Positions 21,569 through 43,943 of a stretch of 64,000 bases of DNA are shown here, one piece after another. The position numbers and the translations under genes are program-made. Origin of the DNA: Eubacterium sp. (lineage in GTDB: Bacteria; Bacillota; Clostridia; Oscillospirales; Acutalibacteraceae); the NCBI GenBank assembly GCA_017458975.1, contig JAFSZK010000057.1, forward strand, positions 11,978-75,977, written 5' to 3'. The notes beneath the pieces are model-generated. The model was not told the DNA's origin, made no database searches, and was given only the letters and a program-made list of their open reading frames with translations. Each line of letters opens with the position of its first letter. Within the stretch, counting starts at the first letter, position 1.

Positions 21569-21573
21569 ATCTT

Positions 21574-21876
21574 ACGCACGGAGTTGCCCACCTGTTCTAA
21601 AGGCTAACAAGGTTTAAATCGTAATCTTTTGCTCATCTTGGCGATTAAAAATCGCCTGAATACGAAAGTATGCAGTCAATTTTATAATCACCAATCCAAC
21701 CAAAATCTTAACGATTTAAACTGCTGCGCACCTCATTCTTAGGATTTTAGTGTAAGAACAAGGCATATTTTTTTGGGAAGGCTGACGCCTTCCCAAAAAA
21801 TTTAACGCAGTTATTATGCTAAAAGACAAGAAATGAGGCTTATTATCCTTTAGAACAGGTGGGCTTTCCCGTGCGT
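21574..21876. repeat. 303-bp fold-back element with 30-bp imperfect terminal inverted repeats (MITE-like or structured RNA)
   Basis: 21574-21603 and 21847-21876 are reverse complements at 26/30 positions (perfect 18-bp core gcccacctgttctaaagg); nested stems inside. Confidence 0.75.
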
Positions 21877-21952
21877 TTTGTTATAATATTGTAATTGTAT
21901 TTAGAGTGAATTTATGATACTATAATAAAAAAATATAAAAGGAGTAATTTTT

Positions 21953-22798
21953 ATGAAAAAGACATTATCAATTTTACTTGCAATTTTAATGATTACAGGC
22001 TTTTCCTCTGTTGCGTTTACGGCGGTGGCTGACGAGCCGGCCTTATGCCATCTTGAAACGCTTGCAACCGAAGGCGGAACCGCTATTGGTGGCGACTACT
22101 ATCCGTCCGGAGATACGGCAGAAATCACAGCAACTCCTGATGAAAACTATATTTTTGTCGGCTGGTATGAAGGCGACAATTTGTTTTCCGACAAAGCCGT
22201 TTACGAATTTACCGTAACAAAGGACATTACCCTTACCGCAAAATTTGAGCCCAAGGCTCTAAAACTCTCTGCAATCAACGTTACAATGACTTATAACATT
22301 GCCAAAAAGCTCAGTATAACGGTTTACGGTGCAAACAACGCTGCACTCAGCAACAAAAATGTAACTATTACTTTTAACGGCAAAAAATACTATTTGAAAT
22401 CAGACAGCAACGGTAAAGCCTCTTTTATTGTTCCGAATACTATTCCCAAAACCTATACCGCAACTGTTGAATGCGACGGAGTTAAACAACAGGTAAAGAT
22501 AGCTATTAAAAAGGCTTCGCCTAAATTAAAAGTAACCACTAAAGCCTTTAAAGCAAACGTAAAAACAAAGAAGTATTCCGTAACCTTAAAAGACAACAAG
22601 GGTAAAGCTCTTAAGAAAGCTAAGGTTACCTTAACTGTTAGGGGTAAAACATATAAAGCAACTACAAATGCAAAGGGCAACGCTACCTTTAAAATTACGA
22701 AGCTTACCAAAAAAGGAAACTATAACGCCTCTATTAAATATAAAGGCGACAAGTATTATAACGCTGCTTCCAAAAAAGCAAAGATTACCGTAAAATAA
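21953..22798 (+). CDS. Secreted protein: divergent InlB B-repeat-like module plus two Lys-rich Ig-like domains resembling methanogen adhesin-like protein tails
   Basis: Signal peptide; GG...G...A.P..NY.FVGWY...YEFTVTKD.TLTAKF module; tail KKASPKLK..K.FKANVKTKKYSVTLKDNKGK..KITKLTKKG.Y...YKGDKYYN...KITVK. Confidence 0.7.
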   Translation: MKKTLSILLAILMITGFSSVAFTAVADEPALCHLETLATEGGTAIGGDYYPSGDTAEITATPDENYIFVGWYEGDNLFSDKAVYEFTVTKDITLTAKFEPKALKLSAINVTMTYNIAKKLSITVYGANNAALSNKNVTITFNGKKYYLKSDSNGKASFIVPNTIPKTYTATVECDGVKQQVKIAIKKASPKLKVTTKAFKANVKTKKYSVTLKDNKGKALKKAKVTLTVRGKTYKATTNAKGNATFKITKLTKKGNYNASIKYKGDKYYNAASKKAKITVK

Positions 22799-43671: not shown

Positions 43672-43922
43672 TAAAATAATAAAGTCCCCGAGCCTATGCT
43701 CAGGGACGGGATAAACCGCGGTACCACCCTAATTGACCTTAAGGTCCTCTCAGCGAGATTCCATCAAATCTCCTGCCATGATAACGGGGCAATCCGTAGC
43801 CGCTTACTTATTCGGCGGCTCTGCTCGGGAACGAGACTTGGTATCCGCTCGCGCTGTCTTACACCGACCGACAGCTCTCTTTGCCGAGTTGAGAATAACA
43901 ATTAATTCCGTCATTGCATTTG
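43672..43922 (-). ncRNA. T-box riboswitch, likely Leu specifier (CUC)
   Basis: On the minus strand: stem I with AGAGAG and GGUGUAA motifs, CUC at 43835-43833, stem II with AGUA, CCGUUA, T-box AAUUAGGGUGGUACCGCG (43734-43717), and terminator hairpin 43707-43684 with a U tract. Confidence 0.92.
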
Positions 43923-43943
43923 GGTTTTATTTGATTGCAAACT

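Follow-up and report, generated by a model that had tools for sequence, protein, structure and literature searches.

A gene-less, most likely mobile MITE-type repeat in the loop of a transcription terminator of Eubacterium sp.

Behind the gene for a PucR/CdaR-like regulator of Eubacterium sp. (Acutalibacteraceae), about 300 nt of non-coding DNA fold back on themselves in nested hairpins, and the locus raises the question of what such a structure is and how it came to lie there. It was analysed within a window of 64,000 nucleotides, which is the whole stretch of DNA considered here (GenBank assembly GCA_017458975.1, contig JAFSZK010000057.1, positions 11,978 to 75,977 of the forward strand); coordinates refer to this window unless another contig is named. 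An initial annotation, made from the letters only, had described a fold-back element of unrecognised type and offered three options, namely a transposable element of the miniature inverted-repeat kind (MITE), a hairpin-recognised element of the HUH/REP type, or a new structured non-coding RNA (ncRNA). Our analysis indicates that positions 21586-21864 are probably one copy of a non-autonomous, gene-less repeat of the MITE type, most likely mobile, and that the terminator loop of the PucR-like gene is where this copy is lodged. This degree of confidence applies to its identity as a mobile-type repeat in a terminator loop, and the mechanism proposed further below is not covered by it.

The repeat, its relatives and their insertion sites

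The terminator of the PucR-like gene is the host of the window element. The stop codon is followed by 6 nt, the stem half ACGCACGG, the bases AGTT, the 279-bp element, the bases TTTC, the complementary stem half CCGTGCGT and TTTGTT. When the element and one TT are taken out, ACGCACGG-AGTTTC-CCGTGCGT followed by TTTGTT is left, which has the form of an ordinary terminator; judged from the sequence, the flanking stems would qualify as an intrinsic terminator, since they form a stem with a T-run just past a stop codon. A direct repeat of TT borders the element on both sides (21584-21585 and 21865-21866) and fits the AA/TT flanks of the family, so that the earlier statement of no clear target-site duplication had to be revised. 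The 'outer 30-bp inverted repeat' described at that stage is indeed paired; it is not a single unit and consists of the 8-bp terminator stem, 4-nt unpaired remnants of the loop and perfect terminal inverted repeats (TIRs) of 18 bp. As noted before, there is no coding capacity: the element holds no open reading frame (ORF) of 40 aa or more, and its size of 279 bp is under the limit of about 600 bp for MITEs.

Further copies occur in the same genome and in relatives. In the own assembly of the window copy (G000; 1.85 Mb, 117 contigs), BLAST found a 69%-identical copy of the same architecture on contig C63, and the genome contains at least 14 loci of the family. The main subfamily of 279 bp occupies 10 loci and is 97-100% identical to its consensus (BLAST), and the other forms comprise diverged copies (window, C63, C84), a deletion derivative (C19) and solo ends. 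The window copy is a lone diverged subfamily member with 54% identity to the other own-genome copies at the same length and architecture, and the genome holds no close (>80%) twin of it. It can be aligned from end to end with 12 other subfamilies. For a broader search, we used the covariance model R1, which covers 72 positions of module A, the most strongly conserved part (CUGCGUUAAA - hairpin - UGCCUUG), read in orientation S, i.e. on the minus strand of the window. The model matched 12 times in the own genome, 28 times in G010 and 25 times in G145, and of 151 genomes sampled within the taxonomic family, 47 contained its core. A large share of the matches is found at the ends of contigs, which is expected of repeats, at which assemblies break. 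No copy of the family was found in G026, the sole other species of the genus.

The long form was additionally scanned over one genome per prokaryote species with the pattern GTTAAA...TGCCTT...GTGCnnnGCAGTTT, which was detected at no fewer than 119 places. Nearly all of the matches listed belong to metagenome-assembled genomes (MAGs) labelled Acutalibacteraceae, Oscillospiraceae, Ruminococcaceae, Faecousia or Clostridia, and the hosts of the MAGs among these matches were guts of humans, sheep, goats and deer. The matches listed also include a complete genome, CP091729.1 (G201). The genome G124 (10 contigs, 98% complete) carries at least 12 near-identical copies, with nine full ones and others at contig ends. 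Across 40 elements of different species, the length varied between 262 and 281 nt. The family is small and non-coding and has TIRs, dispersed near-identical copies and a 2-bp flanking repeat; it is a MITE by descriptive definition and not a new RNA class. Among the options of the initial annotation, the MITE is the one that is borne out, with multiple copies in the genome and in relatives that are near-identical at unrelated loci. What we found was not a single-copy sequence without covariation; there are many copies, and the covariation is strong.

The position within a terminator loop is not peculiar to the window copy. All nine full copies of G124 (about 98% identical) interrupt a hairpin that is different and specific for each locus, with the order A-run, stem half, few bases, element, few bases, complementary stem half and T-run, and several own-genome copies likewise split a locus-specific hairpin. 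For the 40 elements from different species, the own flanks pair with a mean of -14.7 kcal/mol versus -6.9 kcal/mol for mismatched flanks; none of 200 permutations reached the observed mean, and none fell below -8.3 kcal/mol. In the same set, there is an A-run on the left of 35 and a T-run on the right of 34 elements. The flanking dinucleotides are identical in 26 of the 40, with AA/AA in 14 and TT/TT in 11 cases. Convergent genes flank most of the copies (seven of the nine in G124), with their stop codons 10-20 nt away. Where only a single gene abuts, two copies have orientation S and three the opposite one; the orientation of the element relative to genes is random.

Intact terminators were found at corresponding positions in G026. 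The ortholog of the PucR-like gene (78% amino-acid identity) has an intact terminator of different sequence at the same place, and the same is true for the ortholog of a gpmI-like gene located beside another own-genome copy. At the two-flank loci that matched, synteny with G026 is broken, and the comparison is limited to gene-proximal terminators. As a separate observation, a terminator AAAAGACGG...CCGTCTTTTTTT on the minus strand of the own-genome contig C83, about 8105 nt from the contig end, has the palindrome GGGGCGCCCC in its loop, which equals the first 5 nt of each end of the main own-genome subfamily. This palindrome may be an excision footprint, or chance.

The conserved two-arm fold

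Both strands of the window copy fold with high stability. For the 311-nt stretch 21570-21880, the minimum free energy of the RNA was -127.3 kcal/mol (plus strand) and -141.3 kcal/mol (minus strand), compared to -64 and -69 kcal/mol for shuffled sequences, giving z-scores of -13.7 and -13.4; with DNA parameters, z was -13.2 for the region. The predicted RNA and DNA folds are both closed by the terminator stem ACGCACGG/CCGTGCGT. The outer arms (21574-21611 and 21839-21876) comprise 38 nt with 84% complementarity, and further pairing was found between the 52-nt arms 21731-21782 and 21787-21838 as well as in an 11-bp perfect pair (21612-21622 and 21711-21721). All pairings of the initial annotation, i.e. 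its arms, ggcgatt-aaa-aatcgcc, atac-GAAA-gtat and a 14-bp stem, were recovered in the sequence. Also the remark that the 14-bp stem has the wrong polarity for a terminator holds, with T 5' and A 3' on both strands; the polarity of A/T-runs varies among copies, and the inner hairpins were rejected as terminators. Searching Rfam 15 with the window element gave no match at the gathering score, and the best permissive hits (E ≥0.15) were microRNA/snoRNA noise. The sole Rfam match in the whole window is a T-box leader (RF00230, 108 bits) at 43699-43923 on the minus strand.

For the analysis of covariation, 13 subfamilies of 260-281 nt with 45-91% pairwise identity were aligned over their whole length, and an RNAalifold consensus was derived. 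In this consensus, 90.6% of the paired cells can pair, versus 67.8% in shuffled alignments and 37-49% when the partners were slid. Two-sided changes occur in 48 of the 64 pairs, a number reached by none of 500 shuffles. The TIR helix is found in all 13 subfamilies, and its covariation is expected of any transposon; covariation extends, however, to the inner helices of arm A and to arm B's tip. Helices 2-4 of arm A are 90% paired, with compensatory changes in 24 of 31 pairs, and the tip hairpin of arm B (helix 6) has compensatory changes in four of six pairs. Unpaired motifs are conserved too, which read GCGTTAAA, TGCCTT, GGTGCnnnGCAGTTT and AATACT as DNA. About 22 one-sided changes stand against 183 two-sided ones, so that G-U intermediates are rare. 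Strand S was the more stable one in 23 of the 40 elements (p = 0.2). The random orientation, the missing strand bias and the few G-U pairs point to selection on pairing as such, be it in a DNA cruciform or folded single strand, or equally in transcripts of both strands.

In nearly all long-form subfamilies, a TA is located at position 14-15 from each end. Outside of this TA the sequence is hypervariable yet complementary, and inside of it the sequence is conserved (TAAGGAAGTATT...). We considered the GC-rich outer ends of 13 nt as an independent REP-like hairpin targeted by an inner TA-flanked part, and rejected this since the own genome has no 'empty' GC hairpins and just one possible footprint, the one on C83.

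The features of the locus are listed in Table 1. The module A core is the part that the element has in common with shorter TA-flanked repeats of relatives. Downstream of the element, a gene for a secreted protein of 281 aa starts at 21953. The initial annotation had connected the structure with this 'foreign-looking' gene, a link that we do not maintain, as the element belongs to the terminator of the gene upstream.

Table 1. Features at the terminator of the PucR-like gene (window coordinates)
Feature	Position	Strand	Basis
PucR/CdaR-like regulator gene (GGDEF_2 + HTH_30), 361 aa	20483..21568	+	ORF, translation, gene call and Pfam on the identical ENA contig
Terminator stem, 5' half ACGCACGG	21574..21581	+	Pairs with 21869-21876 in RNA and DNA folds
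Left remnant of terminator loop, AGTT (final TT repeated across the element)	21582..21585	+	Sequence
Non-coding element, 279 bp; orientation S reads GCGTTAAAT...TGCCTTG	21586..21864	-	Length class of 40 elements elsewhere
Left TIR GCCCACCTGTTCTAAAGG, 18 bp	21586..21603	+	Exact reverse complement of 21847-21864
Arm B, long hairpin around GGCGATT-AAA-AATCGCC with conserved GCATAC-UUUC-GUAU tip	21612..21721	-	Folds, inverted-repeat pairing
Conserved junction motif GGTGCGCAGCAGTTT between arms A and B	21718..21732	-	Near-invariant columns GGTGC...GCAGTTT in 13 subfamilies
Arm A, nested stems around conserved core	21731..21838	-	Folds; alignment helices 2-4
Module A core CUGCGUUAAAU - hairpin - AUAUGCCUUG	21746..21819	-	Match to covariance model R1, 82.7 bits, E 1.7e-20 (G000:C8:33723-33796)
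Right TIR CCTTTAGAACAGGTGGGC, 18 bp	21847..21864	+	Exact reverse complement of 21586-21603
Right remnant of terminator loop, TTTC (initial TT is the direct repeat)	21865..21868	+	Sequence
Terminator stem, 3' half CCGTGCGT, then T-run TTTGTT	21869..21882	+	Sequence, fold; T-run also detected in a scan, together with a local mini-stem
AT-rich promoter region of the downstream gene, outside the element	21883..21952	+	Promoter-like hexamers at 21889-21918

Composite and short relatives

In the complete genome G201, copies of 1.04 kb are present at three loci (L295 = 985800-987300, L296 and L297). Each consists of the repeat and the same degraded IS200-like insert of 770 bp (Y1 transposase), which adjoins the arm B hairpin, and L295 and L296, the two that were aligned, share 95% identity along all of the 1.04 kb. 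Copying of the composite as a unit, through the ends of the repeat, is the probable explanation; the alternative is that IS200 repeatedly targets the arm B hairpin. These long TIR pairs were rejected as autonomous forms because of their content. Otherwise, the spacing of paired TIR patterns is about 255 bp in both G124 and G201, apart from contig ends in G124 and, in G201, a few lone or degenerate matches and the three 1.04-kb pairs. A related autonomous insertion sequence (IS) with the ends of the family was not found in G124 or G201. Such a lack is common even for accepted MITEs.

Relatives also carry shorter, TA-flanked repeats with module A or module B. The ends of the 165-nt module-A repeats of G010 are almost identical to those of an IS5-family IS of G072, TA|GGGTGTGTTGACACTAAT (18 bp), and this IS is likely the source or mobiliser of the short TA-flanked forms. 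It is complete, has a length of 818 bp (L145; G072:C223, 700-1517), contains DUF4096 and DDE_Tnp_1_2 ORFs in two frames, is flanked by TA and itself lies in an IS3-type orfA. In G010, an IS630-family element (L085; G010:C31, about 1075-2100; DDE_3, TA-flanked, frameshifted) has a module-B-like hairpin CAGGAATACTTCCGTATTGCAAG...GCAACACAGGCAGGCGGAAAA in its non-coding left end, and this sequence recurs in a TA-flanked repeat in L077 that contains B only. A near-consensus promoter, TTTACA-17-TATAAT, precedes another short TA-flanked module-A repeat of this genome (L021; G010:C29, about 1405-1620) by about 25 nt. This repeat lies in the 5' leader upstream of an ABC-transporter gene and could influence expression there. 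Finally, TA-flanked repeats of G021 (L050, L109, L110) and G101 (L051, L107, L108) contain module B together with the junction motif in the opposite direction with respect to module A (AAACTGCTCCGCACC not GGTGCGGAGCAGTTT), and these inverted forms show modules A and B to be rearrangeable independently of each other.

The own genome encodes a RAYT-like HUH tyrosine transposase of 248 aa with a C-terminal helix-turn-helix-like tail (G000:C78:454-1200, minus strand). It is the sole RAYT-like gene of this genome and scores 68 bits against NF047646, under the cut-off of 80. The gene is bordered on both sides by the hairpin GGGACAGGGGACGGTTCCTTGTCCC, which has five copies in the genome; these hairpins are a small REP-like family of their own.

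Mobilisation, alternative explanations and implications

The element is built of TIRs of 18-26 bp, arm A, a conserved junction and arm B, and we propose that a cut-and-paste or copy-and-paste enzyme acts on it in trans. The cut of this enzyme, staggered by 2 bp, would be placed in the tip of a hairpin or cruciform, which is rich in A/T and prone to be single-stranded. The flanking 2-bp repeat fits such a cut in an A/T-rich loop and is too short to separate duplication from a preference for A/T-runs. That the enzyme is of the DDE type we rate as about an even chance. Two reasons, singly or together, may explain why the self-fold has been kept: it could be the form recognised by the mobilising enzyme, or it could rejoin the halves of the split terminator in the transcript. 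In the latter case, termination and the insulation of convergent genes would survive, and the insertion would be nearly neutral.

Several observations weigh against a mobile MITE. A strain-level empty allele was not seen: exact proteins of four flanking genes occur in one public sample, always with the element present. Mobility rests on paralogous copies and on positional empty sites in another species because the species is known from this single public sample. Moreover, no transposase with matching ends was found in the host genomes examined. DDE_Tnp_1 was absent from all five that were searched for it (G000, G124, G112, G067 and the complete G201). The IS30 transposase NF033563 was likewise absent from five of five host genomes, and an rve domain was present in just one of five. 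DUF4096 is absent from G000 and G201, DDE_3 from G000 and G124, and the IS1182 domains PF13751 and PF05598 from G000, and the TIR of the window copy has no significant likeness to the IS ends found. Furthermore, the outer 13 nt of the TIR are wholly different among subfamilies yet complementary, which is unusual for ends recognised by sequence. Ends that keep their pairing and not their sequence would follow if a folded strand were recognised. Along this line, the family might be a distinct class of structure-dependent mobile element that homes to the tips of terminator hairpins and whose mover is either an enzyme belonging to none of the usual transposase families or a host enzyme acting on DNA structure, with the folded-back strand being recognised in place of end sequences, modules A and B serving as recognition or catalytic core, and the fold also keeping the split terminator working; we regard this as rather unlikely.

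Known enzyme families were compared as candidates. The IS30 family makes duplications of 2-3 bp and uses palindromic targets. The size of the repeat and the hairpin target of our family agree with this, yet NF033563 was found in none of five host genomes, and rve was missing from four of five; the latter absence also led to the rejection of other rve-type partners. A MITE of the IS630/Tc1-mariner type was dismissed on account of the outer flanks, which are AA or TT and not TA, the absence of DDE_3 noted above and the fact that none of the DDE_3 loci contains module A. A MITE that derives from the IS5 family and is moved by the ISs of about 0.8-0.9 kb with DUF4096 and DDE_Tnp_1_2 that some relatives possess draws on the nearly identical ends of the 818-bp element and the short module-A repeats of G010. 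In addition, 13-14 of 20 positions agree between IS5-family ends and the long-form ends of G124, G115 and G064/G112b, which is reached by no more than 1.3% of shuffles. For the window copy and the main subfamily of the own genome, however, the match covers 10-11 of 20 positions and is no significant likeness, and the score of the window copy is reached by 13-23% of shuffles. Since the long form is flanked by AA/TT and not TA, and given the distribution of DDE_Tnp_1 and DUF4096 described above, we consider this origin improbable.

Of comparable standing is a REPIN-like system, in which a RAYT, i.e. a HUH tyrosine transposase that is domesticated and present in a single copy, moves a folded repeat after recognising its hairpin in single-stranded DNA. 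It would account for an entire element kept as a hairpin by compensatory changes, for an outer TIR conserved in pairing and not in sequence, for the position between convergent genes and for the missing DDE partner, and RAYT-like genes exist in the own genome, G064, G092 and G100, with a similarly weak, long Y1_Tnp match in G126. The RAYT-like gene of the own genome, though, is bordered by the unrelated hairpin GGGACAGGGGACGGTTCCTTGTCCC, G124 with all its copies has no Y1_Tnp or RAYT match, and G201 has only IS200-type matches, many of them broken. A 2-bp direct repeat and insertion in either orientation are also unlike the product of HUH single-strand insertion, and the element has ten times the length of a REP. 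The HUH/REP option of the initial annotation is accordingly unlikely. Still less probable is a structured ncRNA gene or a cis-acting RNA module (for 3'-end stabilisation, termination or protein sponging) with mobility being secondary. The very strong covariation, the unpaired motifs GCGUUAAA, UGCCUUG, GGUGCnnnGCAGUUU and AAUACU kept at 45-55% identity, the sharing of module A by repeats with quite different ends and the location of all copies in transcribed 3' regions, with L021 behind its promoter in a 5' leader, speak in favour of such an RNA. Against it stand the lack of an orientation preference toward the upstream gene, the equal folding of both strands, the rarity of G-U intermediates, which is unlike typical RNAs, and the missing Rfam match; near-identical copies at unrelated loci also break assemblies in a repeat-like manner. 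The idea of a free-standing ncRNA is therefore not supported. A chance or locally generated palindrome without any family, e.g. a product of replication slippage, would agree with the lack of a close own-genome twin and is practically negligible in view of the whole-length homology to 12 subfamilies with the same length (273-281 nt) and architecture and of the R1 match (E 1.7e-20).

A MITE-type repeat in a terminator loop can be compared with several known systems. Like bcr1, Correia/NEMIS, RUP, ERIC and QMITE, the family is small, non-coding and multi-copy, has TIRs and short direct repeats, lies in intergenic regions and forms a very stable stem-loop (PMC3184786, PMC10969869), and for bcr1 of the Bacillus cereus group compensatory changes keep a cruciform-like fold (PMC3184786). 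Unlike in these folded MITEs, insertion is confined to the loops of terminator hairpins, the two-arm architecture and the length of about 277 nt are constant across genera at 45-55% identity, the outer TIR has retained its pairing and not its sequence, and host genomes contain no related autonomous element. SPRITE of Streptococcus pneumoniae is a terminator-associated repeat (PMC3049150, PMC3184786). At about 105 bp it is itself terminator-like, whereas our element splits a pre-existing terminator and has inner hairpins without consistent terminator polarity. REPIN hairpins are also kept by compensatory changes. With REPINs and REP-BIME, the family shares the hairpin shape, the position between convergent genes and the non-autonomous nature (PMC2817692, PMC3333891). 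It differs from REPINs in its length, its conserved internal modules, its 2-bp direct repeats and the different hairpin next to the RAYT-like gene.

Insertion into hairpins is known from autonomous ISs. IS1397 lands in the loop of palindromic units with a duplication of 3-4 bp. IS1397 and ISKpn1 (IS3 family) insert, like other REP-targeting ISs, inside a palindromic extragenic hairpin, and the specificity resides in the transposase (PMC1525189). Structure-guided target choice is common to them and our family; they are autonomous ISs of 1.4 kb that use one REP sequence, whereas the element described here has no gene and uses many unrelated terminator hairpins, and rve is missing from four of five hosts. 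IS1272/TnSha1 (IS1182 family) of staphylococci targets terminator hairpins without a primary-sequence consensus and in both orientations, and IS1272 cuts the stem and deletes part of the stem-loop without duplication (PMC4923244). The target and the use of either orientation are alike. Unlike with IS1272, each stem half is complete and occurs once, and the element occupies the loop between the two units of a 2-bp direct repeat; for these reasons and because of the absence of the IS1182 domains from the own genome, an IS1182-type element was rejected. In the literature searched, which was not exhaustive, no published description of the family or of loop-specific insertion into terminators was found.

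For practical work, repeats of this family interrupt the assembly of metagenomes at terminators, and comparative screens can take them for structured RNA genes. If our reading is true, gut Clostridia harbour a very widespread small mobile element whose target is chosen by the shape of DNA at the tip of terminator hairpins, which would be among the safest places in a compact genome. Its precise two-arm fold would have been kept over many genera while the sequence drifted. The family would thereby offer a natural system for hairpin or cruciform recognition by mobile DNA, for terminator function after insertion, and for the enzyme that moves elements lacking a visible transposase.

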